Positions 140 to 62,141 of a DNA stretch of 64,000 nucleotides are shown here, piece by piece. This stretch comes from Candidatus Latescibacterota bacterium (GTDB lineage Bacteria; Latescibacterota; CBDEFO01). The notes under the pieces are model-generated. The model was not told where the DNA came from, did no database searches, and worked only from the letters and a program-made list of their open reading frames with translations. How positions within the stretch are numbered: position 1 is the stretch's first letter; every line of letters begins with the position of its first letter. The position numbers and the translations under genes are program-made. The stretch spans positions 1,912,494-1,976,493 of the forward strand of contig CBDEFO010000008.1 in NCBI GenBank assembly GCA_965237525.1, given 5' to 3'.

Positions 140-254
140 GTCAGACAGGAATGTCTGACCCACCAGAAGAGCGTGTTGATAATGTGGTCGGTAGGACAGT
201 CCCCGCTCCCCGATTGAGTCTATCGGCGATTCAACCGGGGATTTGTCTGTCCCC
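140..254. repeat. ~115-bp MITE-like composite element, copy A (GTCAGACAGGAATGTCTGAC hairpin plus REP-like palindrome core)
   Basis: Near-identical over ~105 bp to 6730..6834. Contains REP core CCCCGATTGAGTCTATCGG at ~208-228 followed by the half-repeat ATTCAACCGGGG and GATTTGTCTGTCC. Confidence 0.6.
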
Positions 255-257
255 TGT

Positions 258-1376
258 CTACTTGTTTCGAGTTCCCAGCTTCACAAAGGGAGGCCGGACG
301 ACTTCTGCGGCCTTACTGCTGCCTCTTATATCTACTGCGATCTGCGTTCCTTCTTCCCTGTGATTCCACGACACATATCCCATTCCTATCCCACATTTCA
401 GGGAGGGAGAAAAGGTCCCGCTCGTTACAGAGCCTATCTCTTTTCCGTCTTTGCACAGTATCTTCTGATGACTTCTGGGTATCGCCTTTTCCACCATCTT
501 GAAGCCTACGAGTCTCTTTTTCAAGCCGTCCCTTTTCTGTCTCAGAAGGGCATCCTTGCCCACAAAGTCCTGGGGCTTATCCAGCTTGACCGTCCATTTG
601 AGGCGAGCCTCCAGGGGCGTTACGTCCTCGGTAAGATCGTTCCCGTAGAGTGGGTACCCTGCTTCTAATCTCAGAGTATCCCTTGCGCCGAGGCCCGCAG
701 GTACTGCGCCGTCTGTCGAGAGCGCCTCCCATACAGCGGCCGCATCGGACGGATCGCAGATTATCTCAAATCCGTCCTCTCCTGTGTAGCCCGTCCGGGA
801 GATAATGCACTCTTCCCCTGTGGATATCTTCCCTTCCACAAACCAGTAGTAGCCAATTTCGGAGAGGTTCACATCAGTGTGCCCAGACAAGATCTCCTCA
901 GCATGGGGACCCTGAAGCGCTATCATAGCGTATTCCTGGCTGACGTTTCGTGCTGATACATAATCAAATTCCCGCACTCTTTCTGCTGTCCACTCGTAGT
1001 CTGTATCTATCCTTGAGGCGTTGACCACAAGGAGAAAGAGGTCTTCCCTGCGCTTTAAGCAGACCAGATCGTCTATGATCCCGCCTTTTTCATTGCACAT
1101 AGGAGAATACAAAATTCTCCCTGGAACGAGGGAAGCAATGAGGTTCGGGAGCAGGTATTCCAAGAACTGTTCGGCTCTTTTCCCCTCGATTTCAATCTGT
1201 CCCATGTGAGAAACGTCGAAGATGCCGACCTTCTGTCTAACTTTGAGGTGCTCAAAGTTTATGCCCTGATACTGGACGGGCATCTCAAAACCTGCAAATT
1301 CTACCATCTTAGCGCTACTTTTGATATGCAGGTCGTAAAGAGGAGCCCTCTTAAGATCTCCTTCTGAATTTTCCAT
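258..1376 (-). CDS. gcvT: Glycine cleavage system T protein (aminomethyltransferase)
   Basis: 372-aa ORF with GcvT-like N-terminus (PLYDLH...AKMVEFAGFEMPVQY...GIFDVSHMG), folate-binding domain and typical C-terminus. Confidence 0.9.
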   Translation of the reverse strand: MENSEGDLKRAPLYDLHIKSSAKMVEFAGFEMPVQYQGINFEHLKVRQKVGIFDVSHMGQIEIEGKRAEQFLEYLLPNLIASLVPGRILYSPMCNEKGGIIDDLVCLKRREDLFLLVVNASRIDTDYEWTAERVREFDYVSARNVSQEYAMIALQGPHAEEILSGHTDVNLSEIGYYWFVEGKISTGEECIISRTGYTGEDGFEIICDPSDAAAVWEALSTDGAVPAGLGARDTLRLEAGYPLYGNDLTEDVTPLEARLKWTVKLDKPQDFVGKDALLRQKRDGLKKRLVGFKMVEKAIPRSHQKILCKDGKEIGSVTSGTFSPSLKCGIGMGYVSWNHREEGTQIAVDIRGSSKAAEVVRPPFVKLGTRNK

Positions 1377-2355
1377 AATCTTTACCTTTATCCATGTCTA
1401 TCTATCTTGTCATCCCGAAGTTGTCCAAAAAGATCACAAAGTCGGACAGACCGACCCCACCATCGCCGTTCAAGTCGAACGTTGGATCCCAATCTAGTGA
1501 ACTGTTCGTTGTCCCGAACACATCCAGAAAACGGACAAAGTCGGAAAGATCTACTTCATTATCCCCATCGAAATCGCCGGCGAGATCAATTATGCTAGAG
1601 GGCCCAGAGATATTGAACAGCACTGATATGCTGTCTCTTCTCCTGTTGACTACAACCAGGTCGCTGTCACCATCTCCGTCCAGACCCGTCATGAAAAGCC
1701 AACGCGGCCTATCACCGGCAAAGTAGTCCATCCTCACACCGAACGTTCCGTCTCCGTCGTTCAATAACACCGATACAGTGTTGCTGATTACGATAGCTAC
1801 AGCTATGTCGTTGTCTCCGTCCCCGTCTAAATCCTCAATGAATACTGACATAGGTTGAATTCCAACGCTATAGTCCTCCCTGGTGCCGAATCTCCCATCT
1901 CCTTTGTTAAGCAACATTGATACGCTATCGCCCTTCCAGTTCGCCGCAGCCAAGTCATAATGCCCATCACCGTTCAAATCCACACCTAAAACTGACCAGG
2001 GTTCATCCCCAACATCGTAGTCGGCCCTATTTGCGAACGTCCCATCTCCATTGTTTAGCAAAACTGATATGTTATTACTAGCCGAGTTGGCTACGGCCAA
2101 GTCATTGTGACCATCGCCGTTTAGGTCCGCACCATAAACTGCACGTGGACTATTCCCCACTTCATAGTCTGTCCTGGGCGCATATGTGCCATCTCCATTG
2201 TTTAATAACACCGACATGGTATTGCTCTCGAAATTACCAACGGCTAAGTCCTTATGGCCATCTCCACCCAAATCCGCGCCGAAAACTGAACGAGGTCCAC
2301 CGCCAACCGGATATACCGCCCTGGCTGCGAATGTGCCGTTTCCGTTGTTCATTAA

Positions 2356-3874
2356 AAGCCTTGTGAAATAGTTATGTCCCAGGCAGCGTCTGAAGCGCCG
2401 ATTATGGGTCAAAGAGTAGCATATCGTATCGTTTTGCTGTGGAATAAGCAAAATAGTCTTATCAGAGTTCTGGTCAGCAAGGAATAGGAGTTGTTTGAAG
2501 AACAGGATGCACTGTCTTTGACAGACAGGGCACACATAGACGCTTTCCCCCTTCTTATGAAAGATACAAGCCTCTTGAGATTCTGTACTGTTGCAACAAG
2601 ATTCAACTGTTCATTCAGTGAGGCTGGTCCTCTATAACGGGCTCGTCCCATACCGTGTTGTTGCCTGGCTTCAGCAAAGATATGTTCACTGCGTTTACGG
2701 AGTCTCCGGGAGAGTTTGTAGTCAGCTGTTAATGAGATAGACCGTGCATGATTTCTGGCTTTCGCCTCTCGCACTTTTCTATCCCGTTCGGCCTGAATAT
2801 GTGCTGGATTTGTCTTGTTTTTCCATGTAGGAATCGGTTCAATCTTCTCATCGGCTCGCAGAGGAATATGGGGTATGATTCCCCGGTCAAGTACATCAGC
2901 GATAAAATTACCAGAACCGTAACCGGTATCGGCACTAAGTGTCTGAATGTCTTTGGGCATGGTGTATGTTTCAAGGTCATCTACCATCTTAAGGGCACTT
3001 TCGGGCTCTGCTGTCCCTGTCGCCTGCGTGCCCTGAGTCTCAAGGATTACTCTGCTTTTTGTGTCGATCAGATCATGGCCCATAAACGAGAGAAAAGCCC
3101 CTTTGCCCTTCGATTTGCTGTATAAGCGCGCGTCGGGGTCTGTAGTCGAACGGTGTGTTTGGTTCGTCCACTTTTCACCATGAAAGTCTTTATCCTGAGG
3201 ATGCCCGGACCTACCCTTTGTCTTATCACCTTCAAAACCGATTCCCTTGAGATAATCATCAAGAGAAAAAGGGGGTTCTATCGGCTCAATACTTTTCACT
3301 GAAGCATCAGCTTGTATCTGAGTGCCGTCGACACTAAGGTGTTTACCGCTCACAACACCGACATCTATGCAACACTGGACTACCTGACGCATTATCCGTT
3401 CAAACAACCCACTGGATGCCCACTTGTGATTGCGAAGCTTGTTGATCGTGCTCCTATCCGGAACCGCATCATCAAATGTCTGATGACAAAACAACCGATA
3501 TGCCGCATGCATCCCCACTTCCTGACAGAGCCGATTCTCACTCAAATTATACAGATAGCCAATAAGGATCATTCGAACAACTAATTCAGGATCAATACCG
3601 GGTCTGCCATTGTCAGGGCAATAACAATCTGATACAACGTCTCGTACAAATGAAAAATCAACTGCCTCATCAATCTGACGAAGGATATGATCCTCGGGAA
3701 CTAAATCCTCCATCTGAAAATAGTGAAACATCGGATTTGTCTGTTCCTGCTCTTGTGGGGTCATTGTTTCCTCCATGTATAATATTATCAATAACATAAT
3801 ATAATACATCGGAGCTGCTTTATCAATGCTTGTTCTATACTACTTTCTGAATCTAAGGGTTTTTCACAAGGCTT
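2356..3874 (-). mobile_element. Insertion sequence copy 1 (IS5/IS1182-like DDE element, ~1.52 kb)
   Basis: 13-bp perfect TIR AAGCCTTGTGAAA / TTTCACAAGGCTT. Flanked by TSD TTAA (2352-2355 and 3875-3878). More than 99% identical to copies at 10783..12302 and 14637..16156. Confidence 0.85.
2409..3809 (-). CDS. DDE transposase (InsH-N-terminal-like domain plus DDE catalytic domain)
   Basis: 466-aa ORF filling the TIR-bounded element. N-terminal region LVVRMILIGYLYNLSENRLCQEVGMHAAYRLFC resembles the IS5/IS1182 transposase N-domain. Confidence 0.8.
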   Translation of the reverse strand: MYYIMLLIILYMEETMTPQEQEQTNPMFHYFQMEDLVPEDHILRQIDEAVDFSFVRDVVSDCYCPDNGRPGIDPELVVRMILIGYLYNLSENRLCQEVGMHAAYRLFCHQTFDDAVPDRSTINKLRNHKWASSGLFERIMRQVVQCCIDVGVVSGKHLSVDGTQIQADASVKSIEPIEPPFSLDDYLKGIGFEGDKTKGRSGHPQDKDFHGEKWTNQTHRSTTDPDARLYSKSKGKGAFLSFMGHDLIDTKSRVILETQGTQATGTAEPESALKMVDDLETYTMPKDIQTLSADTGYGSGNFIADVLDRGIIPHIPLRADEKIEPIPTWKNKTNPAHIQAERDRKVREAKARNHARSISLTADYKLSRRLRKRSEHIFAEARQQHGMGRARYRGPASLNEQLNLVATVQNLKRLVSFIRRGKASMCALSVKDSASCSSNNSYSLLTRTLIRLFCLFHSKTIRYATL

Positions 3875-4600
3875 TTAATACAGACGCAGTATTGCCGTAG
3901 AAATCGGCCACAGCCAAGTCATTATCTCCATCTCTATCGAAATCCACACTGAATACTGAATTGGGAGCATCCCCGGCAGCATAGTCCACCTTAGGTGAAA
4001 ATGTGCCATCTCCATTATTCAAGGACACTGACACAGTATTGGCGAACCTATTGGCCACAGCTAAATCGTTATATCCATCGTCATCTAAATCTGTGCAGAA
4101 GACCGATGCAGGAGCGTCCCCAGCAGGATAGTCTACTTTATTCGCAAATGTCCCGTCTCCATTATTGGACAACACAGATATATTATCGCTGAGCCAGTTA
4201 GCCACAGCCAGATCATAGTCTCCATCGTCATCCAGATCTGCGCTGAAGAGCGAGGCCGGGGTAGCACCAGCAAGATAGTCTGCCTTGGCTGTAAATGTTC
4301 CGTCTCCGTTGTTGAACAGGACAGACACATTGTCGTTGTTGAGATTGGCCACAGCCAGGTCATTATCTCCATCGCTATCAAGATCTGCGCTGAAGATCTA
4401 TACCGGACGATCGCCAACGGGGTAGTCAGTCCGGATTCCGAAAATAGCCTGTGCAGAGGCAGGCGCGTTCAAAGCGAGCGATAGCACCAGAGTAGCATAT
4501 GGGATAGTTCGACTCATTTTGATGATCTACTTGTTGGTATAGTGCTCACCATTGTGTGGAACTCCAGGCCTTGGTCCTTGGTAATCGATATTTCTTGGAT

Positions 4601-5746
4601 TTATCCAGCCCTGCCGAAGTTATCCAAGAAGATCACAAAGTCGGACAGACCGACATCCCCATCATCGTCCAAGTCAAATGCAGGATCCCAATCGGCTGAA
4701 GTGGTTGTTGCCCCAAACACATCCAGAAAACGGACAAAGTCGGAAAGTCCTACTTCACTGTCCCCATCGAAATCACCTACAAGGCCGGGGACGCCAACAG
4801 GGATATCGGAGAGATTTAACAGAACTGAAATGTAATCCATGAGGCCAGAGTTAGCCACAGCCAGGTCGTTATCTCCATCTCCATCTAAATCTGCCGCGAA
4901 TAGTGATACGGGAGTATATCCAGCGGGATAGTTTAGCTTAGGTGCGAATGTGCCATCTCCGTTATTCATCAATATTGACACATTGTCACTTCCCCCATTA
5001 GCTACAGCTAGATCACTATCGTCATCTCCATCTAAATCTGCAACGAATACTGATTTCGGGTAACGCCCAACAGCATACTCCATGTTGCTTGGAAAGGTCC
5101 CATCGCCCTTATTCAATAGCAGGGATACACTGTGCCTGGAGTAGTTAGGCACAGCCAGATCATTGTCTCTATCCCCATCCAAATCTGCAGCGAATACCGA
5201 AGAACCTCCGCTGATATCGTAGTCAGTCCTTGGCGCGAAAAGACCGGTGCGAGTAACGATTTCTATGGTCTTTTCGGCTACCGATGTAATTCCAGGTTCA
5301 TATGATTTGAATTCTCCCTTAATGGTATAGGTTCCTTCAGGTAGTGTTTCACTTTTGAGACATCCCCAATTGTCTTCTGTGCATTCGTCTAATTTCCACA
5401 TAAATAGAAAGGCGGTTTCACCGGGTTTAAGCTCCACCTCTGTTATTAGATCACAATGTGTACCAGGAGGGATTATGAACCTTCTCCCGGAAGAATCAAA
5501 ATAGGATAGAGTACAAGCCTCGTAAAATGGATTAAATATATACGATACTTTGCCCGTATTTTTTATCATAATTTCTACTGGTTCTCCAACATTGTGAGTA
5601 TCGCTGATAGCAAATTGTATATCTGAAGTGACGCTATCTATCTGACTTTTCGCTCCCGTGTTGCCGGTCGCCCAGATGTCCACATATAAATACTGATTTA
5701 GAGCAACCGATAGCACTATAACAGTAAAGAAGATCTTTCGATTCAT
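4601..5746 (-). CDS. FG-GAP/VCBS-repeat secreted protein with C-terminal dockerin-like module (intact paralog)
   Basis: Start at MNRKIFFTVIVLSVALN (signal peptide). Four FG-GAP-like repeats. C-terminal ~60 aa nearly identical at DNA level to the 3' end of the 1402..2355 fragment. Confidence 0.75.
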   Translation of the reverse strand: MNRKIFFTVIVLSVALNQYLYVDIWATGNTGAKSQIDSVTSDIQFAISDTHNVGEPVEIMIKNTGKVSYIFNPFYEACTLSYFDSSGRRFIIPPGTHCDLITEVELKPGETAFLFMWKLDECTEDNWGCLKSETLPEGTYTIKGEFKSYEPGITSVAEKTIEIVTRTGLFAPRTDYDISGGSSVFAADLDGDRDNDLAVPNYSRHSVSLLLNKGDGTFPSNMEYAVGRYPKSVFVADLDGDDDSDLAVANGGSDNVSILMNNGDGTFAPKLNYPAGYTPVSLFAADLDGDGDNDLAVANSGLMDYISVLLNLSDIPVGVPGLVGDFDGDSEVGLSDFVRFLDVFGATTTSADWDPAFDLDDDGDVGLSDFVIFLDNFGRAG

Positions 5747-6729: not shown

Positions 6730-6834
6730 GTCAGACAGGAATGTCTGACCCACCACAAAGTGTGTTGATAATATGGTTGGTAGGGCAGTCCCCGATTGAG
6801 TCTATCGGGGATTCAATCGGGGATTTGTCTGTCC
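6730..6834. repeat. ~105-bp MITE-like composite element, copy B
   Basis: GTCAGACAGGAATGTCTGAC ... CCCCGATTGAGTCTATCGGGGATTCAATCGGGGATTTGTCTGTCC. Near-identical to 140..254. Confidence 0.6.
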
Positions 6835-9645: not shown

Positions 9646-9743
9646 GGGAATGGCTGAGTCACTGGTGGGCTTCGCGGACTTCAAATCCGTTGCGGCGTAC
9701 TAACACTGCGCTGGGTGGGTTCGATTCCCACACATTCCCGCCA
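9646..9743 (+). tRNA. selC: tRNA-Sec (anticodon UCA)
   Basis: ~98-nt tRNA. Acceptor GGGAATG/CATTCCC plus discriminator G plus CCA. Anticodon loop CTTCAAA (TCA). Long variable arm. T-arm GGGTTCGATTCCC. Confidence 0.8.
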
Positions 9744-9763: not shown

Positions 9764-9796
9764 CCCCCCTGATAGATTCAATCGGGGGTAGACAGG
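9764..9796. repeat. REP-like palindrome (reverse orientation) with TAGACAGG tail
   Basis: CCCCCCTGATAGATTCAATCGGGGGTAGACAGG, 20 bp after the tRNA-Sec 3' end. Preceded by CCCCGCTCCCC as in the MITE-like copies. Confidence 0.6.
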
Positions 9797-12302: not shown

Positions 12303-12396
12303 TTAAGATCGTGCAAAAAGTGGTTGTTATACTCCAAGTTTATTGTTATCTTAACTACTATGTCTATAATAAGATAAGTCAAAGGGACAACTGCCT

Positions 12397-14591: not shown

Positions 14592-14636
14592 AGACTTGAA
14601 ACCTTTAGAACCATCTGCGTAAAAGTGTTAGCTTAG

Positions 14637-16156: not shown

Positions 16157-16437
16157 TTAGTGTCTTGGAAAATATTACTACCTTCGAATCGGGATTGGTG
16201 GCTGCTTAATAGAATTGGTGACGGTTGGTGACCGTTTGCATAGAACTTTTGAAAAAACAAATTTTTTGAAAATGTGAACAGTTTATAGTAAAAGGTCACC
16301 AAGGTCACCAAGTGAGCATTTTGGTCCATCATATTACCTTGATCTTTAACTCTTTGGAGCTCTTGATCTCTAACGTCTTGTAAATCTAAATTTCGATCTT
16401 CTGCTGACCCACCAAGGCTCAAATTAGAAAATCCATT

Positions 16438-18313: not shown

Positions 18314-18335
18314 ACCCCCGATTGTTTCTATCGGG
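18314..18335. repeat. REP-like palindrome (forward)
   Basis: CCCCCGATTGTTTCTATCGGGG. Confidence 0.6.
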
Positions 18336-18497
18336 GACGTGTGTCTGCCCCTGGGACGACCACTTCGTGGTTTGTTGCCTCCACTCCCCGGCAAAGCTCC
18401 CACGGCGCCTTGCCCCTAAATTCAATCTGCTGCCTTTAAGATGGCCTGAGCAATCTCGGAGGGGATAGGATGTATCCCCTGCCTACCTCTGATTGCA

Positions 18498-18520
18498 TCT
18501 CCGATTGAATCTATGGCGGG
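18498..18520. repeat. Degenerate REP-like copy
   Basis: CTCCGATTGAATCTATGGCGGG. An adjacent hairpin GGGGATAGGATGTATCCCC lies at 18461-18480. Confidence 0.4.
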
Positions 18521-21388: not shown

Positions 21389-21421
21389 CCCCGATTGCTT
21401 CTATCGGGGATCAATCGTGGG
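21389..21421. repeat. REP-like palindrome (forward) plus half-repeat
   Basis: CCCCGATTGCTTCTATCGGGGATCAATCGTGGG. Confidence 0.6.
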
Positions 21422-21847: not shown

Positions 21848-22095
21848 CTCTTTTCAGAACTGCGCTGGAGTTTGAATCTCCTGTAAAAACAGCTCATTAT
21901 CGTTCAAACTATCCTTTTAATCGTCATCATCAACCGCGATGGCCTCTCTTTAGGGGCCTGTGCTTTAAGATTTGCCCAAACGAAAGCCCCTTGTGCCGAT
22001 TACGCAAGGCGGCTCTCGCCCCAGTCATTCACCGCTGCCCTTACCGGCGCAATTCCATTTAAAGAAAGTCACGTTGTCACCTGCCGCTGTCTATT

Positions 22096-22782: not shown

Positions 22783-23626
22783 TCTTCCGGGGTCTTGTAT
22801 CCCAGAGATGAATGAAGCCAGTTCTTGTTGTAATTATCGATCCACTGAGATATGATCTTCTCAGCTTGTTCAAAGGGCTTGAAATTGTGAAGCCACACAC
22901 ACTCCTGCTTGAGGGTCCTGAAAAAACGTTCTATGACCCCGTTCCAATCGGCCTTTACGCTCGGAATATATTCTTGACGAATGTCCCAATATTCGGTACT
23001 TGCCAAATAGGCCCGAGCCAAAAAGATGGAACCATTGTCAGAGCGCAAAGTGAGACCCTGGGGGACAGCCTCCTTGGAGGTGTATCGAGAGATCACGGCC
23101 CGATCCAGGGCATCTATGGCCTCCAACGCCCTTCCTCTTTTACTAAGACGATACCCAGGAACCTCCCGGCTTCCGTTGTCCACCACCGCAATAAGAGGAC
23201 ACCAACCATCTTTTCCACAGTAAATCTTTGTCAAGTCACTCGACCACAAACTGTCGGGACTATCCACCACAGAACGCTTCTGGGCAACCTGTGGCCCCTT
23301 TCTCCCGGGGTCCCCGATTGATTCTATCGGGGATTCCACAGCTTACACTGCCACCCCTTAAGCTTCATTATCCTATGAACCTTCTTGACGTTGCCACATT
23401 CCCCTTCCTTGAAACGAAGATGCGCCCAAACCCGCCTGTGACCAAATGCCTCTTCTTGGTCCAGTATCCCTCGAATACGAAAGGCAAGCTCCTCATCTAT
23501 CACAGGCTCTTTAACAGAAGAACTGACACCTCTATCCCTAAACCTATACAGAGTCGAACGATGAAAACCCAAAGCCAAAGCTACCACCTTGCGGGAATAG
23601 CCTCGACCCCAAAACCGCCCACTCAA
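22743..23626 (-). pseudogene. IS3 OrfB (DDE integrase) split by a REP-like insertion
   Basis: 100-aa N-terminal fragment (…HRIMKLKGWQCKLWNPR*) and 198-aa C-terminal fragment are separated by the REP at 23312..23332. Removing 20 (or 23) nt there fuses them in frame. Confidence 0.75.
23312..23332. repeat. REP-like palindrome (forward) inside IS3 orfB
   Basis: CCCCGATTGATTCTATCGGGG. Confidence 0.7.
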
Positions 23627-23935: not shown

Positions 23936-23983
23936 CTTGACCTCCTTTCTCAAACCCCAATTTGCAAAATATTTGTCGCCCTG

Positions 23984-29690: not shown

Positions 29691-29726
29691 ATAGATCAAA
29701 ATTATACTCATAGAACTGGAGGTTAG

Positions 29727-30033: not shown

Positions 30034-30054
30034 CCCCGATAGATTCAATCGGGG
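30034..30054. repeat. REP-like palindrome (reverse)
   Basis: CCCCGATAGATTCAATCGGGG followed by ATAGATTC. Begins 2 nt after the FmdB stop. Confidence 0.65.
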
Positions 30055-31088: not shown

Positions 31089-31109
31089 CCCCGATAGATT
31101 CAATGGGGG
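31089..31109. repeat. REP-like palindrome (reverse)
   Basis: CCCCGATAGATTCAATGGGGG. Confidence 0.6.
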
Positions 31110-40401: not shown

Positions 40402-40490
40402 TCGGAGATCTGTGACCAACAGAGTCCGTACTACCTCCGGAGATCTGTCCTAATCTCTTCGACAACCAGCTGACCGCACTACCTCCGGAG

Positions 40491-42716: not shown

Positions 42717-44195
42717 ATGAAGTTCAGATATACTATAATCCTTGCGGTTATCTTTGCAGGGCTCCTTGCTTTTGCGCTCCGCGATAAACGACAGCGCCAG
42801 GAGAAAGAAGAGACAAAAAAGGAGGCGGAGAAGTTACTTATATTTGACAGAGATCAGGTGAGACGGCTGACTCTGATCCGGGAGGATGAGACCATTGTGG
42901 CAGAAAAAGAGGAGTCGGGAGAATGGAAGATAGTTTCCCCTGTCCAGACAGACGCTGACAACGACGCTGTTGAAAGGCTCATAGACAACATTGGAAACAC
43001 CCGAACAGATAGAGTCCTCGTAAAGGAGGTGGATGTAGAGGACGCAGAAGAGACACTCGAAGGATACGGTCTGGATAAACCCACTGTCGTTCTGCACATG
43101 GAGCTGGAAGGTGATGCGACCAGTACGTACGGTCAACTGGATACGGTTTACTATGGGGGAGAAAGCCCTACCAGTTCCTACGCATACGTAAGGAAAGGGC
43201 AGAGTCTGGATATACTTACTATCCCGCTTTGGAGGAGGGATAATGTGGACAAGCAGCTTTTCGATCTGAGAGATCAAAGGGTGCTGGGGTTTCAAAGCGA
43301 TGAAGTGAGACAATTAGATATCAAAAGGGCTGGTATTTTAATGTCGGTCTCCAGGTCGGGAAGTATGTGGAACATAGATAAACCTGTCCAGGACAGAGGT
43401 GACGGAGACGAAATAGATAAGATCATACGAAAGCTGAATCAGGAGAAGGTCAAAGAGTTCGTCAGCGAATCGCCTGACATGGGTGAGCTTGAGGGATACG
43501 GGCTTACAGATCCGCATGTAGAGGTCACACTCTGGCTGGGGGCGGACAGAGCTAAGAAGATTCTCTATATCGGAGACGAAAAGCGTAGTGATCTCTATGC
43601 CCAGGATAAAGAGGACGCTGATCGCTACGCCAAGGATGAATCGAAGGAAGCTGTCTTTCTGATATCTTCCGAATTGAAGGAGGCCCTGGAGGTAGACCCC
43701 TTTGCGCTTCGATACAAACAATTAGCTGATTTCGAAAGCGACGATATAGACAAGGTGGAGTTCGCATACAAAGAAGAGGCGCCCACTCCGTATAACGCGA
43801 TCTTATGTGTGAAGGACACGTCTGGTAACTGGAGCGTGGCATTCCCATCCCCGATAGATTCAATCGGGCAAAAGAAAGATGCCAAAGGATGGAAGATTCG
43901 CGGTGCTATGAGTGATATAGCTGATCTCAAAGCTGAGAAGTTCCTCCCAGAGGAGTCTTCCGACACGGAGTCGGCGCTGGACCTGTCCCAGTACGGTCTT
44001 GAGCGCCCGCGCATCACCGTCAGATTGTGGAAGGGAGAGAAGCTGGTGCTCCAGTTTTTCATCGGCAAGGGGAAGGATGAGTTCGTCTACGCCAAGACAT
44101 CCCAAAGCGATAGGGTCTACCTTGTCAGAAAGAGTATAGTGGAGGATCTGAACTTCACTATAGACGACATAGCAGTATCAGAAGGAGGGGCTTGA
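42717..44195 (+). CDS. DUF4340-like protein (usual partner of GldG-type ABC modules)
   Basis: N-terminal TM anchor. Repetitive beta-rich domains typical of DUF4340. A REP copy is embedded in frame. Confidence 0.5.
   Translation: MKFRYTIILAVIFAGLLAFALRDKRQRQEKEETKKEAEKLLIFDRDQVRRLTLIREDETIVAEKEESGEWKIVSPVQTDADNDAVERLIDNIGNTRTDRVLVKEVDVEDAEETLEGYGLDKPTVVLHMELEGDATSTYGQLDTVYYGGESPTSSYAYVRKGQSLDILTIPLWRRDNVDKQLFDLRDQRVLGFQSDEVRQLDIKRAGILMSVSRSGSMWNIDKPVQDRGDGDEIDKIIRKLNQEKVKEFVSESPDMGELEGYGLTDPHVEVTLWLGADRAKKILYIGDEKRSDLYAQDKEDADRYAKDESKEAVFLISSELKEALEVDPFALRYKQLADFESDDIDKVEFAYKEEAPTPYNAILCVKDTSGNWSVAFPSPIDSIGQKKDAKGWKIRGAMSDIADLKAEKFLPEESSDTESALDLSQYGLERPRITVRLWKGEKLVLQFFIGKGKDEFVYAKTSQSDRVYLVRKSIVEDLNFTIDDIAVSEGGA
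43849..43869. repeat. REP-like palindrome (reverse) embedded in-frame in a CDS
   Basis: CCCCGATAGATTCAATCGGGC encodes P-I-D-S-I-G-Q inside ORF 42717..44195. Confidence 0.65.
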
Positions 44196-46220: not shown

Positions 46221-46236
46221 GTGCGGTAGACAGTAG

Positions 46237-46259
46237 CCCCCGATAGATTCAATCGGGGG
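46237..46259. repeat. REP-like palindrome (reverse) flanked by GTAGACAG short repeats
   Basis: GTAGACAGTAG-CCCCCGATAGATTCAATCGGGGG-TGGACAGTAGACAGGACAAACAAGTAGACAGCAAACAGTAGTCAGTAGACAGG. Confidence 0.6.
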
Positions 46260-46347
46260 TGGACAGTAGACAGGACAAACAAGTAGACAGCAAACAGTAG
46301 TCAGTAGACAGGGCACCACCGCCCTTCCCACCAGATTGCTTTGCAGT

Positions 46348-46368
46348 CCCCGATATAAGCAATCGGGG
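46348..46368. repeat. REP-like palindrome variant with extended 12-bp stem
   Basis: GCAGTCCCCGAT-ATAAGCA-ATCGGGGACTGC. Confidence 0.55.
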
Positions 46369-47492: not shown

Positions 47493-49447
47493 TCCATCGG
47501 GAGACTCGTCAGGTAAACAACGTAAGAATAAGTGGAAAGGCAAGCGGAGCGTTGCCCTGTCTGCCCCGATTGCATCTTTCGGGGGGAGGCCCTCGATTGT
47601 ATCCATGTGGCGCTACTATCTACTGTCTGCTGATACCTGTCTTCTGTATACTGATTTTGTCGGTGTCGTTTCCTGCCTATACTGCTGACGTTAGCTTTCA
47701 GGCCTACGTAGACAAGAATAAGATCGGAACGACCGACCGGCTTAAGCTGATCGTATCGGTCTCGGGATCTAAGCTGGGCAGCCTCCCCGATCCGGTCCTC
47801 CCCACTCTGAACAATTTTACCGTGTCCGCTCCGGTCCGAAGCTCATCTTCCAGCTATCAGTTCTCCACAGGCGGTAGTTTGGTATCCGAACAGAAATTAG
47901 AGTTTACGTATATTCTGCGCCCTCTGAGGAGCGGGCGCTTGGTTATAGGTCCCGTGAAAATGAAGGTTAAGGCTGTGGAGTATGAGTCTCGTCCTATTCA
48001 GATCCAAGTAGTCGAGGGAACCACTGAAACTGTGAGGACGCCGAGAGGTAGTCAAATACCGATAGAGGGAAATCTGTATATGGAGGTGACTGCAGATAGA
48101 GAGAGGGCATACGTGGGCGAGCAGATAACCCTGTCCTACGACCTTTACAACAGATTCAGTATTTCAGACTTAAGATACAACGCCGCCCCTGCGTATCAGG
48201 ACTTCTGGGTTGAGGATATATTCGATTTCAGAACAAAGAGTTATCTGGAGAGCAGACGAGAGGCGATAGATAACCGACTCTTTGAAGTAGCTCTTCTGAA
48301 AAAGGTGGCAGTCTTTCCGAAGGCTCCGGGTACTTTCAGGATAGAGCCTCTTAAGATAGAATGCGACATCCAGGTGAGAGGTAGGAGTACGAGCATCTTT
48401 GACTTTGGTGGATTCTCCTCAAGGACGAAGACCCTTTTAGTTCAGTCCGATCCCATAGATGTGGAGGTTCTGCCGCTGCCACAAAGGGGAAAGACGGGGG
48501 ATTTTGACGTTCCTGTCGGCGACTTTTCCATCTCGGCTTCGACCGATCTGAAGACCGCTACAAAGGGGGATGCGATATCCTTAAAGGTGGTCATCTCGGG
48601 TGCGGGAAATGTAACTTCCATAAGGGAACTGAAGTCTCCTCTCTTGGACTCGTTCAAGGTCTACGATCCTAAAATAGAGGCAGAATCGAAGGCCGTAGAC
48701 GGGATCATTCAGGGCACAAAGACGTTCGAATATGTTCTGATACCTGAGACTGACGGCGATCTTCTGATAGCTCCCTTTGAGTTTTCTTACTTCGATCCTG
48801 CAAAAGAAAGGTATATGACGACTCAGACTTCTCCTCTGTCCCTCAGTATTTCTCCTGTGTTAGAGACCGAGAAGGTTTCGGCGGGATATGGCCTTTCCCG
48901 CGAGGAAATAAAGTTAATAGGGGAGGATATACGCTATATCAAGCCCGATTATAGAGGGGCAGAACGCCAGCTTGAGGATCAGGGCCGACCCTTATACAAG
49001 AATATGCGTTTCTTATTCCTTCAGATAGTCCCCGTCATAGCCCTGATCGGGGCCTGGACATATAAACGGCACCTTGTGAAGGTTCGTACCGATGCTGCCT
49101 ACGTCCGCAGGAAGAGGGCCAAAACTCAGGCCGCCAGGAGGCTCAAAAGGGCAAGGCAACTTATGAAAGATGAGTCATCAACCGAGTTCTACGCTGAGAT
49201 CAACAGCGCTCTTTCGGAGTTTTTGGCGGATAAGCTCAATATCCCGGCTGCAGGGCTCACCAAAGATTCTATGGAGGAGCATCTACTGCAAAGAGGCGTA
49301 GACCAGGCATTGGTAGATAACCTGAAAGATACTCTAAGCCGGTGTGACTTTGCAAGGTTTGCCCCCTCCCAATCTATGTCCGATGATCTGGAAACGCTCC
49401 TGAATAAGACCGAAAAGTCCATTGATCGTTTGGAAAAGCGAATTTAA
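47489..49447 (+). CDS. batD: BatD-like oxygen-tolerance protein
   Basis: ATGA overlap with the batB stop. Signal peptide, repeated beta domains, C-terminal TM plus basic tail. Confidence 0.6.
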   Translation: MIHRETRQVNNVRISGKASGALPCLPRLHLSGGGPRLYPCGATIYCLLIPVFCILILSVSFPAYTADVSFQAYVDKNKIGTTDRLKLIVSVSGSKLGSLPDPVLPTLNNFTVSAPVRSSSSSYQFSTGGSLVSEQKLEFTYILRPLRSGRLVIGPVKMKVKAVEYESRPIQIQVVEGTTETVRTPRGSQIPIEGNLYMEVTADRERAYVGEQITLSYDLYNRFSISDLRYNAAPAYQDFWVEDIFDFRTKSYLESRREAIDNRLFEVALLKKVAVFPKAPGTFRIEPLKIECDIQVRGRSTSIFDFGGFSSRTKTLLVQSDPIDVEVLPLPQRGKTGDFDVPVGDFSISASTDLKTATKGDAISLKVVISGAGNVTSIRELKSPLLDSFKVYDPKIEAESKAVDGIIQGTKTFEYVLIPETDGDLLIAPFEFSYFDPAKERYMTTQTSPLSLSISPVLETEKVSAGYGLSREEIKLIGEDIRYIKPDYRGAERQLEDQGRPLYKNMRFLFLQIVPVIALIGAWTYKRHLVKVRTDAAYVRRKRAKTQAARRLKRARQLMKDESSTEFYAEINSALSEFLADKLNIPAAGLTKDSMEEHLLQRGVDQALVDNLKDTLSRCDFARFAPSQSMSDDLETLLNKTEKSIDRLEKRI

Positions 49448-51824: not shown

Positions 51825-52374
51825 GTCTTATTCTCCTAACTTAACAGAACACTGCAAGATAAAGGACAATATAATAAATATAACGGAACTGGCCTATTTG
51901 TCAACAGATTTACATTTAGCTGTCAGGGTAATGCACTTCTCAGTCTGGAGGTGAGGCTTGATTGAACGTCTGTTTAAGTGCTTTCTTCCTGTTTCGTGTT
52001 TCCCTAACTCTTTATGTTATTAGGAGATAAAGCTTATTGACTTTCCTCTTGTTTCGTGTTATGTTATGGCATTCCCGCTTGTTCCAGTAGAAATTTAGTA
52101 GAAGTATGGTAGAAAAGTCAAGGACAAAATTGCCCAGGGGTATTCAGTATTCCCAGAAGTGTTGGTTGGGTAGGAGCGAAGCAACGTATCAAGGCCAATC
52201 AGGGCTCGTTCACCTCCGGACTGAGAACTGTAAACTCTGTGGCAACTTCCAATCCTGTCGGGTAAAGGCACATGGTATCCACCCTTGGTAAAGATAGATA
52301 GAAGAGAGTCAAGGATCAAGACTGGCCCGATTAATTCATAAACTTGGTGGAGTCATTGCGAGGAGCAAAGCGGT

Positions 52375-52395
52375 CCCCGATTGAGTCTATCGGGG
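52375..52395. repeat. REP-like palindrome (forward)
   Basis: CCCCGATTGAGTCTATCGGGG. Confidence 0.65.
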
Positions 52396-52700
52396 AAGCA
52401 ATCTCAAGGTTTTATAGTGGTCTCCTATGAGAGCCCGAGAGTATTACATCTACCACATAATCGAGATTGCTTCGCCTTCGGCTCGCAAGGACACCGAAGG
52501 TGGTTAAACGTCATAACTATAATATAATACAATCCCTTAATTAATACACGGCCTTTTTTTGTGAATTATTCGGGCTTAGCTTGAAACTTTGTTGCACTAA
52601 TTGAGGCCATAATCAAAAGCTATCCTTAGCCTGCGGTTGAGGAAGCGATACAGATGTAGCTGGGCTTTAGGTTTGATCAACTAATAAAAGGAGGCAGGCG

Positions 52701-55433
52701 GTGAGAGATCTTAGAACTATACATTGTGCTTGCGAAGCTGTTCTTATGATGAGTTTGGTACTTTTCCTATTTCCTGTTCGTGTGCAGGCTCAGGTTCGTA
52801 TGGAGCGTCAGGGATATTCGATCGTGGGCGGCAACAAGGTCATCATAGATTCGAAAGAGCAATGGTCTTTCTGGAAGGCTGCTGCAAAGACGATCCAGGT
52901 CACCGATGAGGGGGTAAGACCTGGGTTCATGCGCAAGAGCACAGAAATAGAGATAGATGGCCAGATGGTGAGGGTTCCCGGCATAGACGTTGTCCCAAAT
53001 GCATTTGAGTTTGGAGGAGGCATAAAGGCGGCAGGTTCAAACGCTTCAATCGCCGCCGACCTTATGGATGGTGATCTGGACACCTACTGGGAACCGGATA
53101 TGGATGATCCTATAGAGAATTGGTGGGTGCAGATAGATCTGGGGCAGCTTATATCTGTCACCAAGATCGTTCTCAGGTTCGTGGGGGAGGATCTTGGAGA
53201 TCCATTTTTGCAGTTTAAGGTCCTAACGGCTCAAGGGGAGCCGTTCCCTGGTCGGCCTGACCTGTTTATATTCAGAAAGGTCTTGAGTACGGACCAGCCT
53301 AACCTGGATGAGAGGGTCTTTGAGGTGGATATGACTCTTCTGAAGCCCACTGATTTTCCAGATGTACTCGGGGATTTCACTGGTGATGTTATCAGATATG
53401 TGAATGTGGTTATAACAGACAGCAGATACGGTAAGGGGCTGCGGGTCACCGAATCTGGATTTGAGAGTCTGGAGCCTGACGAACGTGGAGAGATAGAATA
53501 CTTCAGACGAGAGTCAACAGGCAGGTTGAGGTTGGTGGAAGGCTTACGGCAATGGGAGGCTATAGAGGATGAGAGCAAACGAGGACCGGTAGTCCACCAC
53601 CGTCGGGAGTTGCCGAGGTTGGCGGAGGTTGAGGTGTGGTCAATTGGCGACAACATCGCTTTGGGCATATTAGATCGCGGCGGCACTTTAGAGAGCACTG
53701 AAGCCCCAAACGAACCGCTCTTGGTTGATGGTAATATCAAACCGGCGTACAACATTTCGAATCAATATAAGAACGACCCAACGCCGGATTTTCTGCAAAC
53801 TGAGCGCGGGTTAGTTATAGATCTTGGAGGTGCCTTCTTTTTAGATAACGTTCGGATGATTACGGATTTAGGGGGGACACACGGTCAGGGCACGCTTTAT
53901 GACAATTACGCAATGAGTCTGTCGGACGGTTCCAGGACTCTTGACGGGAGCTTAGCCTGGAAGCTTGTGGTGGATATGGTTTCCGGAAGCCAGCTTGGTC
54001 AAACAAAATATCACGACCACAAATTCAAGGCTTCCAAAGCTAAATTCTTCTCCCTTACCTGGACTCTGCTTGGGGTAAAGGGAGGGGGAGGACGTGCCGC
54101 AATAAAGGAGATTCAATTATTCGGAGAGGGCTATTTGCCGGAGGCCCAGATTGTATCTATCTTTGAAGGGAGATCCCCCTTCATTGAGCTGCCAGGGATA
54201 AGGAATCTGACGTCGTTACAGTGGGATGCAGATACGCCGGAAGGCACAGATGTGCTTATTCAGACAAAGACAGGTGATACGGTCAAGAAGGTAAAATACT
54301 ACTTCACGAGGGCAGGCAAAGAATTGCACCCGGGGAACGAGAAAGAAGCAGAAAAAGCATATAACAAGTGCTGTCTTAAAGGGTTTTTTGAGGGGAGTAT
54401 AGTGGAGGAGACAGTCCCAGGAAGTGGTTGGAGTGGCTGGAGTGAGACCTATGTGCGTTCGGGGGACAGGTTCAGATCTCCCAGTCCCAGAAAATACATT
54501 ATGATCCGAGCTACCTTTCTGACGGACGATCCTTTTCGATTTGCTACTTTGCGTTCAGTGAGGCTTAATTTCTTGGCAGGTGACCCTGTTGCCACATCTG
54601 TGATTGGAGAGGTAACACCTTCCCGTCTGGATTCGATAGGCATTAAGCAGGAACTGTCCTTTTTCATCCGCCCCACGTTTGATTTTAGGAGCAAAGGGTT
54701 GGATGAGATCCTTATCGAGGCGCCTTCTGGAGTCAGGATGAACTTTAAGCAGGTCAATAAGTGGGAGGATGAAAGCATTGAAGACATGATCATAGATGGC
54801 CATCTGAGGGAACCTGATGAAAGTTATACAGATAAAAGCGAAGGTTTTCAGGTTTTATCCAGACCTGATTCCGATTCACTGTGGGTTCGGCTGCCGGGTC
54901 GTATAAAGACGACTACGGGTAATGTTCTAATCGAGGTCAAGTTTGAAGCGCAGTTATTTGGATTCAGCACATTTTTTGATGGTTCTATAGGCAATTCATC
55001 CGTAGAGGGTTCCTGGCAGAGGACGGACGATGGTGATGCTAATGGCGTTACAGACAGCGAAAAGACAGTAGTATTAGCCCTTGAGGGGAATAGGATATTA
55101 GATGCTATTGAGGTAGATCCTAAGATAATTACACCCAATGGAGACGGGATTAACGATAAGACGTCGATAAGCTTTTTACTGTTGCGTGTGGGGTTATCAA
55201 CTCCTGTGCAGGTGCAGATATACGATCTTAGCGGCAATATAGTTGTTGAGTTGCTGAATGACTCTCTTTCTTCGGGGGCATATAAAGAAGACGATGCAGT
55301 GATCTGGGATGGCACCGATAGTTCAGGAGGGTTAGTTACTCCTGGTATATATGTTATAAGGATTAATGTTGATACCGATTCAGATTCTGCTGAAGATAGT
55401 TCAGTCAGCCGGTTAGTGCAGGTTGCATATTGA
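52701..55433 (+). CDS. Large secreted protein: N-terminal discoidin/F5-8-type-C-like domain, C-terminal T9SS type-B (CHU_C/gliding-CTD-like) sorting domain
   Basis: Signal peptide. …MDGDLDTYWEP… domain. C-terminus …IITPNGDGINDKTSISF…VQIYDLSGNIV… resembles the PNGDGIND T9SS CTD. Confidence 0.55.
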   Translation: MRDLRTIHCACEAVLMMSLVLFLFPVRVQAQVRMERQGYSIVGGNKVIIDSKEQWSFWKAAAKTIQVTDEGVRPGFMRKSTEIEIDGQMVRVPGIDVVPNAFEFGGGIKAAGSNASIAADLMDGDLDTYWEPDMDDPIENWWVQIDLGQLISVTKIVLRFVGEDLGDPFLQFKVLTAQGEPFPGRPDLFIFRKVLSTDQPNLDERVFEVDMTLLKPTDFPDVLGDFTGDVIRYVNVVITDSRYGKGLRVTESGFESLEPDERGEIEYFRRESTGRLRLVEGLRQWEAIEDESKRGPVVHHRRELPRLAEVEVWSIGDNIALGILDRGGTLESTEAPNEPLLVDGNIKPAYNISNQYKNDPTPDFLQTERGLVIDLGGAFFLDNVRMITDLGGTHGQGTLYDNYAMSLSDGSRTLDGSLAWKLVVDMVSGSQLGQTKYHDHKFKASKAKFFSLTWTLLGVKGGGGRAAIKEIQLFGEGYLPEAQIVSIFEGRSPFIELPGIRNLTSLQWDADTPEGTDVLIQTKTGDTVKKVKYYFTRAGKELHPGNEKEAEKAYNKCCLKGFFEGSIVEETVPGSGWSGWSETYVRSGDRFRSPSPRKYIMIRATFLTDDPFRFATLRSVRLNFLAGDPVATSVIGEVTPSRLDSIGIKQELSFFIRPTFDFRSKGLDEILIEAPSGVRMNFKQVNKWEDESIEDMIIDGHLREPDESYTDKSEGFQVLSRPDSDSLWVRLPGRIKTTTGNVLIEVKFEAQLFGFSTFFDGSIGNSSVEGSWQRTDDGDANGVTDSEKTVVLALEGNRILDAIEVDPKIITPNGDGINDKTSISFLLLRVGLSTPVQVQIYDLSGNIVVELLNDSLSSGAYKEDDAVIWDGTDSSGGLVTPGIYVIRINVDTDSDSAEDSSVSRLVQVAY

Positions 55434-55441
55434 GCAAGCAG

Positions 55442-55463
55442 CCCACGATAGATTCAATCGGGC
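55442..55463. repeat. Degenerate REP-like copy (reverse)
   Basis: CCCACGATAGATTCAATCGGGC, 9 nt after the stop of the 910-aa gene. Confidence 0.45.
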
Positions 55464-60992: not shown

Positions 60993-61033
60993 CCCCGACC
61001 CTCGATAGAGTCATTCGGGGGTTCAATTGGGGA
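60993..61033. repeat. Degenerate REP-like copy (reverse) plus half-repeat
   Basis: CCCCGACCCTCGATAGAGTCATTCGGGGGTTCAATTGGGGA. Confidence 0.45.
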
Positions 61034-61061
61034 CGAAGCATCACAGACAAAGGAGAGGATA

Positions 61062-62039
61062 ATGAACGTTCCGCCGACGGACGGGATGCGAGTTTCTGTA
61101 CAGGACCTTCGCAAGCTGGTGGCGTCCATATACCGGGGAGTTCCCGTTCCCGAGGATCACGCCCAACTGATCGCCGATCTCCTGATCGACACGGAGCTGC
61201 GCGGCGTCGTCAGTCACGGGGTTGTGCAGGTCGAACGCTATGTGCGCGCCTTCCAGGAGGGTAAAGCCAATGCGCACCCCAACGTTCGGGTTCTGAAGGA
61301 AGGTCCTGTGACAGCGGCCCTGGATGGAGACGGCGGTCTCGGGATGATCGTCGCCACGAAGGCCATGCAGATGGCAATAGCTAAAGCCAAGAAGATGGGG
61401 GTCGGAGTCACTACAAGTACCTACCACGATCACCTTGGGAGTTCGGGAAAGTATATCCGGATGGCCCTGCGCGATGACCTGATCGGGATTAGCTTCTCGG
61501 GTAGGAACGCATCGCCGAGCTACGACTACAACAGCACCATTCAAGGTTCGATACAGGGGAGTCCGCCGCTCGCCTTCGGCATGCCTTCCGGGCCCGATCA
61601 GCCGTACTTCATGCTGGACCTGGGCAGTCACATGGAGTGGGATGAGGAGTGCTTCAAGAAGATGCCTCAGGTCTTCTTCAGGTGCATCGGGTTCTCGCAC
61701 GTGGCCAACATCATGAGCGGCACCCTTGGGGGTCAGATGCTTCCGGAGTTCAACCGCCAGAACGTCAAGTACACCGGCGCCAACCAATCCGGGTTCTTCA
61801 TGGCCCTTGACATCGAGTGTTTCGTCTCGCTCCAGGCCTTCAAGGACGATATGAACCGTCTGATGGAAGAGACAAGCAAGATGAAGCCCTTTCCGGGCTA
61901 TTCCGAATCTAGCCTCCCCGGTGGACGCGCGTGGAAGAAGGAGAAAGAATATTTGCAGGATGGCATTCCCATCTCCGAGACCGCAGTTAAATCGTTGGAG
62001 AAATTGGCTCTTGAATTCGGCCTTCCTGTTCCCTGGTAG
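61062..62039 (+). CDS. Ldh_2-family (malate/L-lactate/sulfolactate-type) NAD(P)-dependent dehydrogenase
   Basis: GGAG RBS. Ldh_2 fold landmarks (…HGVVQVERY…, …HLGSSGKY…, …GISFSG…). Confidence 0.6.
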   Translation: MNVPPTDGMRVSVQDLRKLVASIYRGVPVPEDHAQLIADLLIDTELRGVVSHGVVQVERYVRAFQEGKANAHPNVRVLKEGPVTAALDGDGGLGMIVATKAMQMAIAKAKKMGVGVTTSTYHDHLGSSGKYIRMALRDDLIGISFSGRNASPSYDYNSTIQGSIQGSPPLAFGMPSGPDQPYFMLDLGSHMEWDEECFKKMPQVFFRCIGFSHVANIMSGTLGGQMLPEFNRQNVKYTGANQSGFFMALDIECFVSLQAFKDDMNRLMEETSKMKPFPGYSESSLPGGRAWKKEKEYLQDGIPISETAVKSLEKLALEFGLPVPW

Positions 62040-62120
62040 AGGGGGAGAAGCGCAGTAATTACGCTCGTACTTTGGAGATGAAGTACGTGTGGTAGGTGTG
62101 CACGGATCGTGATCCCTGAT

Positions 62121-62141
62121 CCCCGATTGCGTCTAGTGGGG
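62121..62141. repeat. Degenerate REP-like copy (forward)
   Basis: CCCCGATTGCGTCTAGTGGGG. Confidence 0.45.

Follow-up and report, generated by a model that had tools for sequence, protein, structure and literature searches.

What is the short palindrome that recurs throughout this stretch of DNA from Candidatus Latescibacterota bacterium, and how has it spread? The stretch, which we call the window, comprises 64,000 nucleotides of contig CBDEFO010000008.1. It carries many copies of a sequence whose arms, CCCCGAT and ATCGGGG, enclose a loop of seven nucleotides. We propose that this palindrome is probably a non-autonomous dispersed repeat of the repetitive extragenic palindrome (REP) class, and that what replicates is no more than a hairpin of 20-23 bp. 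The evidence includes comparisons of sites that are filled in one copy of a sequence and empty in another.

Anatomy and abundance of the palindrome

The motif reads Y-CCCCGAT-W-GANTC-W-ATCGGGG-R and is found at 18 sites in the window, against a chance expectation of 0.2-0.3. An earlier note on this DNA, made from the letters alone, had claimed a dense family of REP-like palindromes, and these counts bear it out. The form CCCCGAT-N7-ATCGGGG occurs exactly eight times (0.00 expected from 100 dinucleotide-preserving shuffles) and 17 times when up to two stem mismatches are allowed (0.28 expected). The loop-inclusive pattern CCCCGATWGNNTCWATCGGGG with up to three mismatches identifies the 18 sites, where 0.16 are expected. 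The coordinates given in the note are right to within 1-7 nt. Two of its copies need qualification: the one at 18498 is real but degenerate, lying at 18499-18519 with three mismatches, and the one at 50536 is merely a relic with an enlarged loop.

The loop of the palindrome is W-GANTC-W, with T..T at the W positions on one strand and A..A on the other. The whole 21-mer is a near-perfect dyad, interrupted solely at these W positions, and every copy can therefore be given an orientation, as had been claimed. Five copies in the window have a variant loop of the TGYTTCT type or similar (18316, 21389, 46348, 47564 and 62121). Further copies come from OZ252149.1, the 4.54-Mb chromosome of a Candidatus Latescibacterota metagenome-assembled genome (MAG), which we call the sister genome. 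Window positions 21854-29832 correspond to one of its loci (L031) at 95% identity. One protein of the window has an identical database counterpart on a contig of 2.03 Mb. When 72 copies from window and sister genome are compared, each of the 21 core positions shows almost no variation, and the bases of the loop are conserved as strongly as those of the stem. The pair that flanks the core covaries as T..A or C..G in 60 of these copies (36.6 expected), and beyond it there is no conservation and no pairing. The hairpin consists of an 8-bp stem (Y-CCCCGAT / ATCGGGG-R) and the 7-nt loop, and its total length is 21-23 bp.

Outside the Latescibacterota lineage the flanking sequences vary from copy to copy, and the core typically caps a longer hairpin. 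The flanks lengthen the stem by at least two pairs in 54 of 98 such copies, compared with about 14 of 98 in a shuffled-partner control. Pairing is also preserved within the stem. Four of the ten copies with a double mismatch are Watson-Crick compensatory (CCCCAAT..ATTGGGG, CCCTGAT..ATCAGGG), where about 0.3 would be expected by chance. They probably represent some two independent events, because some of the copies belong to propagated sub-lineages. The sub-family CCCCAAT..ATTGGGG is found at three loci (L032 3402, L042 7794 and L045 920). Each compensatory-stem copy is nested in the loop of a standard copy, the palindrome being inserted within itself.

The copies in the window are mostly intergenic and often at gene ends, both of which the earlier note had observed: 15 of the 18 lie outside confirmed coding sequence, and at least eight are located 1-81 nt past a stop codon or the tRNA-Sec gene. 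About half of the copies in tandem gene contexts are within 60 nt of the upstream stop codon. In the broad sense of a short (20-40 bp), over-represented, imperfect palindrome that is mainly extragenic, the sequence is a REP, and known REP families have such properties in common (PMC3733652, PMC3116915). Its copies in the window are irregularly spaced and kilobases apart, which does not resemble the regularly spaced direct repeats, with unique spacers between them, of a clustered regularly interspaced short palindromic repeat (CRISPR) array. Where copies are neighbours, they are separated by irregular spacings of 49-380 nt and have mixed orientation. The statement that many copies carry a second half-repeat was overstated. 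The copies at 208 and 6790 are the only ones with a true additional right arm, ATTCAATCGGGG, after them; a degenerate one is seen at 21389 and 61000, and the remaining ATTCAATCGGGG matches in the window are the motif's own right half. Flanks of the GACAG/CTGTC type are present at some copies (for example 208, 6790, 9767, 46238 and 47564) but are not general.

Filled and empty sites

The insertion sequence (IS) of the IS3 family at 22714-24000 in the window has paralogues in the sister genome. Two of these are empty (L040b and L056); they contain an intact orfB of 316 amino acids and read ...CCCGGGAC|GATTCC... at the site in question. In the filled copies, which are that of the window and four others, the same site reads ...CCCGGG[GTCCCCGATTGATTCTATCGGG]GATTCC... 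and the open reading frame (ORF) is split. A dispersed repeat of 250 bp shows a similar pair of states. The empty form AAAGCGAC|GAAGCAATC becomes AAAGCG[GTCCCCGATTGAGTCTATCGGG]GAAGCAATC when filled, and the insertion lies in the loop of a CGTC-like REP, AGTC-ATTGCGAGG...GACGAAGCAAT-CTC. At both sites, in orfB and in the 250-bp repeat, 22 nt stand in place of 'AC', so that the sequence grows by 20 nt without target duplication. A variant unit, made up of CCCCGATAGCATCACTCGGGG and 6 nt more (net +27), is carried by three IS3 5' ends and lacking in seven, including that of the window. In a protein gene, the DUF4340 copy at 43849 corresponds to a gap of seven residues, located exactly at SPIDSIG, in all seven homologues compared (35-43% identical).

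At least six further insertion events are found in a motif-bearing lineage of 42% GC. One is another net +20 replacement. Two have a direct duplication of 5-6 nt around a 21-22-mer (net +27), and one of these two lies in the loop of a GTAG-type REP. One variant insertion mirrors 5 nt of its flank, and several events exchange the apex of a small hairpin (GCTTGAAGC, CTGGCAAGTTGCCAG, GGCGATTTGCC) for the 21-mer.

These alignments show that units have been inserted singly into sequence that already existed, and that this happened independently at many sites. Since filled and empty members of a pair differ by one unit, the replicating unit is 20-23 nt long, or 27 nt in the variant. The earlier note had taken the half-repeats and flanks to suggest a longer ancestral unit, which these pairs contradict. 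The element is also distinct from miniature inverted-repeat transposable elements (MITEs), which are 50-500 bp long, with terminal inverted repeats that match a parent IS and a target-site duplication of fixed length: its unit is 20-27 bp long, a duplication of 5-6 nt is seen in two events only, and the others replace 2-9 nt. The unit is also unlike either end of the window's IS3 and IS5-like elements, and a derivation from the insertion sequences of the window was rejected.

The disrupted IS3 subfamily is 99.8-100% identical among its copies, which indicates recent spread despite the broken transposase gene; it is presumably mobilised in trans. The 250-bp repeat of the window (52325-52578) is also present at four other loci (L013, L016, L028 and L050). 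In some lineages the core lies inside the loop of GTCATTGCGAGG...GACGAAGCAATC REPs. Elements of this form, closely similar to the REP of the 250-bp repeat, host the palindrome in three unrelated contigs (L088, L111 and L143), and a more diverged element of the kind does so in a Bacteroidales MAG (L024).

Distribution across genomes and metagenomes

The earlier note had proposed a pattern search of other genomes and metagenomes, and this finds the palindrome in abundance outside the window. The condition under which the note would have counted as refuted, a motif confined to this stretch, therefore does not hold. By our own calculation the exact pattern CCCCGATWGANTCWATCGGGG should occur about four times by chance in 596 Gb. 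The genome scan gives at least 61 loci with this pattern, and the sister genome has 39 loci among the matches listed. At least eight differently labelled MAGs carry the exact core. Besides OZ252149.1 the labels, which are the depositors' own, comprise Deltaproteobacteria (four MAGs, 40-43% GC), the PVC group (55%), an uncultured bacterium (58%), Bacteroidales (32%), Thermodesulfobacteriota and others. In the metagenome scan the exact core is present in at least 120 contigs, which range from 33 to 68% GC. Homologous proteins common to the motif-bearing lineages are only 28-45% identical. Viral contigs contain no copies.

The setting of the core differs between lineages. AT-richer contigs show an arrangement of A-run, core and T-run that is like a bidirectional terminator, and such T/A-run terminator forms account for at least 8 of 103 copies in other lineages. 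In the 42%-GC lineage the core is found within several larger repeats, and in higher-GC lineages it takes the perfectly palindromic form TTGAWTCAA, CCCCGATTGA-N-TCAATCGGGG. A composite unit of about 90 nt is found in contigs of 41-58% GC (L063, L068, L074, L086, L096, L101, L119, L121, L135 and loci of the JAZDIV and CAWGIE MAGs). It consists of TAAATTAGCGCC-TTCG-GGCGCTACTTTAT, then GGA-palindrome-TCT, then GTTGGTTAA. Its first hairpin, of the UUCG type, appears by eye to covary, and the unit may be a structured RNA or a mobile repeat of composite make-up. Neither this unit nor the composite units of other lineages match Rfam.

No described family was matched by the palindrome in Rfam or in full-text sequence searches, in agreement with the earlier note. 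The only Rfam matches in the window are tRNA-Sec and tRNA-Arg, and literature searches on the palindrome sequence returned chance primer matches only. A metagenome search for orthologous loci by way of a VWA protein found none, and searches for contigs encoding either of two window proteins found nothing. A second assembly of the window's strain (L182) has the same motif content and is uninformative for polymorphism.

Search for a mobilising enzyme

REPs of the GTAG type are known to be associated with REP-associated tyrosine transposases (RAYTs). A hidden Markov model (HMM) for this family was built from homologues of E. coli RayT, broadened with 106 diverse PF01797 proteins, and run on all six-frame ORFs of 1.4 Mb. 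The earlier note saw no RAYT gene in the window, and at the level of the HMM there is indeed no RAYT or Y1 gene there. Three RAYT (PF01797) genes were found, all in the 42%-GC lineage: L100 7058-7537 (also in L123), L006 6019-6387 and L022 4168-4860. Each is bracketed by its own GTAG-type REP (GTAGCGCGGGGGTTTATCCCCCGC, GTAGGGGAGGGGCTTGTCCCCTCCC or TAGGGACACATCCC) and none by the palindrome. A CCCCGAR variant is inserted in the loop of one of these RAYT-flanking GTAG REP types (GTAGGGGAGGGGC|...|TGTCCCCTCCC). Among the best 120 homologues of the L100 RAYT, none is encoded on a contig of 2,030,145 or 4,540,735 nt, the lengths that correspond to the two genomes of this lineage.

Interpretation and rival explanations

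The account that we favour is that of a REP-class unit in the form of a single-stranded hairpin, which a sequence-specific enzyme acting in trans would copy and paste. This enzyme would read the invariant stem and loop and would be encoded outside the window. The invariance of stem and loop across distant lineages suggests recognition by a sequence-specific protein, and both the tendency to insert at hairpin apexes and the nucleotides that are mirrored or replaced at the junctions point to a single-stranded or hairpin intermediate. Insertion may favour exposed hairpin apexes or single-stranded DNA. Copies persist almost only where they are harmless, in intergenic DNA and often just past stop codons. 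There the unit would be transcribed into 3' untranslated regions as an RNA hairpin of -15 to -18 kcal/mol, which could serve as a weak terminator or as a barrier at the 3' end. Where hosts are richer in AT, the core with its A/T runs would take the form of a canonical bidirectional terminator. A secondary role as a 3' RNA hairpin is likely but unproven.

Several observations weigh against this account. The junctions are heterogeneous: some events replace 2-3 nt for a net gain of 20 nt, others gain 27 nt and show a direct duplication of 5-6 nt, and in others again the apex of a small hairpin is replaced. No single known transposition chemistry accounts for all of these types. Several of the 'empty' comparators are paralogues that are only 80-90% identical, in which later change may blur the junctions. 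In the IS3 copy of the window, segments of the filled and of the empty subfamily are combined, and the minority loop variant is shared, so its motif was probably acquired by gene conversion and not by fresh insertion; on the strength of these two features independent re-insertion at this site was rejected. No Y1 or RAYT gene was found in the window or in the 39 OZ252149.1 loci, which span 309 kb; together they make up about 370 kb, or some 8% of the genome. No protein family is enriched beside the motif in 181 loci; as candidates by guilt by association only the TPR, FG-GAP and response-regulator families recur. The gene calls in these loci are our own and are based on codon usage. There is no U-tract after the palindrome in this genome, and the proposed role in RNA is therefore one that we only infer.

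The REPs might alternatively be mobilised by a RAYT, a Y1 HUH transposase, that is encoded elsewhere in the genome and flanked by the motif, as in classical systems of REPs or REP doublets forming hairpins (REPINs). The REP-like anatomy and the dependence on a hairpin would fit, PF01797 genes do occur in motif-bearing 42%-GC genomes (L100/L123, L006 and L022), and the loci sampled amount to only about 8% of the sister genome. We nevertheless consider this unlikely. The GTAG tag is found in only 5 of 70 main-form copies, there are no REPIN doublets and single units insert alone, the three RAYT genes adjoin different REPs, no RAYT gene was found in the window or the 39 loci, and none of the best 120 homologues is encoded on a contig of the length of either genome. 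Quite unlikely, in our judgement, is that the copies are functional RNA hairpins, such as factor-independent or factor-assisted terminators or 3'-end stabilisers, that are selected at gene ends, with mobility incidental or absent. The unit folds into a stable RNA hairpin, at -15.5 to -17.6 kcal/mol with z = -3 to -4, a check that the earlier note had proposed. Its position after so many stop codons suits such a role, as does its likeness to a bidirectional terminator where A/T runs adjoin it in other genomes. Moreover, canonical terminator-like sites with a U-run are not enriched in the window (19 against 15.3 expected), so another signal could serve. A terminator, however, needs neither an invariant 21-nt sequence nor a conserved loop. 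A T-run follows the palindrome in none of 49 copies of this lineage, and a terminator scan of the window flags only one copy. The stop-proximal side is preferred only about 2:1, which is not significant. Copies are also found in an IS transposase gene, in a protein gene and in divergent promoter regions, and the insertion polymorphism is a gain of whole units.

It is very unlikely that the 21-bp dyad is a duplex DNA binding site for a dimeric host protein, such as a nucleoid-associated factor or one related to topology, in the way that gyrase and IHF bind the bacterial interspersed mosaic elements of E. coli. The dyad symmetry runs through the 'loop' (GA-N-TC), which is as conserved as the stem and is part of a perfect palindrome in higher-GC lineages, and the exact sequence is retained across distant lineages. 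The compensatory stem changes and the variable flanks that covary to lengthen the stem point to intrastrand pairing instead. In this lineage the asymmetry at A..A/T..T is fixed, and no candidate protein was found. We give almost no credence to the idea that the arms are DNA-uptake sequences in inverted pairs, like the DNA uptake sequences (DUS) of Neisseria and the uptake signal sequences (USS) of Haemophilus. Inverted pairs downstream of genes do resemble DUS-pair terminators, but half-sites almost never occur alone: 13 of 14 CCCCGAT and 11 of 16 ATCGGGG in the window belong to motif copies or to the extra arm at 6790. In uptake sequences, by contrast, solo 9-12-mers dominate, on both strands and within genes too. 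Uptake sequences are also lineage-specific and are not common to genomes of 33-68% GC.

A bolder reading is a tentative possibility only. The 21-mer could form the centre of a 'hairpin-cap' element that is cosmopolitan and spreads horizontally. A novel enzyme or a templated repair pathway would write it into the apex of hairpins already present (REPs, terminators and small palindromes), and neither a RAYT nor a DDE transposase would be involved. Such a mechanism would explain both the identical core at 33-68% GC and the junctions, with their 2-3 replaced nt, mirrored flank and net gains of 20 or 27 nt. If true, the palindrome would be the smallest autonomous-looking mobile DNA unit in bacteria, at about 20-23 nt. 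The identical core in very distant uncultured lineages makes a phylogenomic search for a co-occurring enzyme feasible. The element disrupts or decorates genes, as in IS3 orfB and the DUF4340 gene, and it yields spurious short ORFs and peptide motifs like SPIDSIG in MAG annotations.

Copies in the window and their genomic context

The copies of the palindrome in the window are listed in Table 1. The copy at 6790 is part of a repeat of about 110 nt that it has in common with 140-252.

Table 1. Copies of the palindrome in the window, with strand, state of the core and location
Position (strand)	Core	Location	Remarks
208..228 (-)	1 stem mismatch	29 nt past gcvT stop	degenerate extra right arm ATTCAACCGGGG follows
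6790..6810 (-)	perfect	70 nt past polA stop	extra right arm ATTCAATCGGGG follows
9767..9787 (+)	T-G wobble in stem	23 nt past tRNA-Sec	
18316..18336 (-)	perfect stem, variant loop TGTTTCT	intergenic or at 5' edge of a weak ORF	
18499..18519 (-)	degenerate, 3 mismatches	11 nt past stop of gene 18531-19709	
21389..21409 (-)	perfect stem, variant loop TGCTTCT		
23312..23332 (-)	perfect	in orfB of IS3-family element 22714-24000	reading frame split; empty paralogues in sister genome
29670..29690 (-)	1 mismatch	36 nt upstream of zinc-ribbon gene	conserved in sister genome (L031)
30034..30054 (+)	perfect	begins 1 nt past stop of gene 29727-30032	
31089..31109 (+)	1 mismatch	between BamD-like gene and next gene	
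43849..43869 (+)		in frame within DUF4340 gene (42717-44195)	encodes SPIDSIG; absent in 7 homologues
46238..46258 (+)	perfect	17 nt past batA stop	GTAGACAG repeats on flanks
46348..46368 (+)	perfect stem, variant loop ATAAGCA		flanks add 5 stem pairs (GCAGT/ACTGC)
47564..47584 (-)	variant, TGCATCT loop	inside annotated 5' end of BatD gene	TGTC 5' flank
52375..52395 (-)	perfect	in loop of CGTC-like REP within 250-bp repeat 52325-52578	empty paralogues exist
55443..55463 (+)	2 mismatches	9 nt past stop of gene 52701-55433	
61000..61020 (+)	2 mismatches	upstream of or at 5' edge of Ldh_2 gene	degenerate extra right arm follows
62121..62141 (-)	degenerate variant	81 nt past Ldh_2 stop	

In the window the A..A reading tends to match the sense strand of the upstream gene (about 13 of 15 copies by eye), and it flips near 25 kb, where gene strand and GC skew flip. 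The earlier note had proposed a check for orientation bias relative to flanking genes, and in 57 copies of OZ252149.1 none is found. Tandem contexts give 23 sense against 20 antisense copies, the comparison with GC skew gives 28 against 29, and the combined trend of 19 to 9 in stop-proximal copies is not significant. We treat the pattern in the window as local or due to chance. A link to avoidance or methylation of GANTC as a restriction site was also rejected; GANTC is not depleted (316 against 250 expected).

The genes of the window are ordinary chromosomal ones and include gcvT, polA, cdaA, a sigma-54 activator, a BatA/BatD cluster and tRNA-Sec. The tRNA-Sec gene is located at 9646-9743, from which it follows that the organism uses selenocysteine. 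Between 24500 and 26650 the genes switch from the minus strand on the left to the plus strand on the right, and the cumulative GC skew has its minimum there. The pattern resembles that of an origin or of the edge of an inversion; a search of the region for DnaA boxes showed no cluster of them. Three copies of an insertion sequence with a transposase of 466 amino acids (DDE_Tnp_1/DUF772) are present at 2352-3877, 10800-12320 and 14633-16160. The segment at 10.8-16.1 kb lies between inverted copies of this element and has a GC skew opposite to that of the neighbouring DNA, which suggests an IS-mediated inversion.

The window contains several repeats of other kinds. Tandem coding repeats of 147 nt are found in FG-GAP repeat proteins (1714-5200), and tandem coding units of 69 nt at the start of an LRR/Roc-COR gene (40049-40609). 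A dual-specificity phosphatase gene is tandemly duplicated together with its upstream region (24827-25348 and 25515-26054), the two being about 80% identical over some 700 nt. Short GTAGACAG/GTAGACAGGG(N)CACC...CCTCCC repeats are found at 46226-46311 and also beside many copies of the palindrome in OZ252149.1; they are a repeat family separate from it.

Comparison with known repeat systems

The nearest described group is the superfamily of CGTC-tagged REPs, which includes dRS3 of Neisseria and RPE-4/6 of Rickettsia (Di Nocera et al. 2013, PMC3733652). These have an unpaired tag (CGTC, TGTC or CCTC) on one side, a 3-nt tail on the opposite side, a stem of 8-9 bp that starts with two A-T pairs, a loop of 4-5 nt, and head-to-head dimers. 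No dedicated transposase is known for them, and their families span distant phyla (PMC3733652). The palindrome of the window is likewise a short intergenic sequence, with a stem of similar length (8 bp), that occurs near the 3' ends of ORFs, occasionally within genes, and in multiple phyla. In the 181 loci compared and in the roughly 8% of the sister genome that was covered, no dedicated transposase gene was found, which is so far consistent with the CGTC REPs. In contrast to the CGTC REPs its main form lacks a conserved tag or 3-nt tail, and no conserved GTAG, CGTC or other 4-mer is present on either side of the main-form core in 70 copies. Its outer stem pair is T-A or C-G, with C-G pairs next to it, its loop is sequence-conserved and has 7 nt (5 if W.W is counted as stem), and its copies are mostly singletons.

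A tagged sister form links the palindrome to the CGTC REPs. This form, YGT-CCCCGAR-TGNTTCT-ATCGGGG-AT, has a CGTC/TGTC-like 5' flank and is found only in other lineages and at 47564 in the window. In the 42%-GC lineage it forms head-to-head dimers with GTC-ATTCCCGA...TCGGGAAT REPs. How REP-type repeats without a RAYT spread is a question that dates from the description of the CGTC family, and the palindrome bears on it. It offers unusually clean material, namely a unit of 20-23 nt, many filled and empty pairs at base level, and nesting in the loops of other REPs.

GTAG REPs and REPINs are associated with RAYT transposases, whose genes are flanked by the cognate REPs. One end of the hairpin has a conserved unpaired GTAG or a close variant of it, and the REPIN, an inverted doublet, is the over-represented replicating unit (Bertels and Rainey 2011, PMC3116915). 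The palindrome resembles REPINs in being an over-represented extragenic hairpin with non-autonomous mobile behaviour and preserved pairing. It differs in lacking the GTAG tag and in being a single hairpin unit of 21-23 bp, and the RAYTs found, in one motif-bearing lineage, adjoin other REPs.

In size the palindrome most resembles the small dispersed repeats (SDRs) of Nostocaceae, which Elhai et al. in 2008 reportedly described as being of about 21-27 nt and judged to be mobile with no known enzyme. Its sequence is unrelated to theirs and belongs to another phylum, and its core is common to many lineages. Most families of Rickettsia palindromic elements (RPEs), for example RPE-1, are about 100-150 bp long. 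Like them the palindrome has been inserted in frame in a protein gene (DUF4340, +7 amino acids), but it is far shorter at 20-23 nt and this is the only in-frame case. With intrinsic terminators it shares a GC-rich hairpin just past stop codons and, in some AT-richer genomes, the A/T runs, whereas its invariant sequence, the missing U-run in all 49 copies here and the copies in non-terminator positions set it apart. We therefore class the palindrome as a new form of REP-type repeat, outside any defined superfamily.

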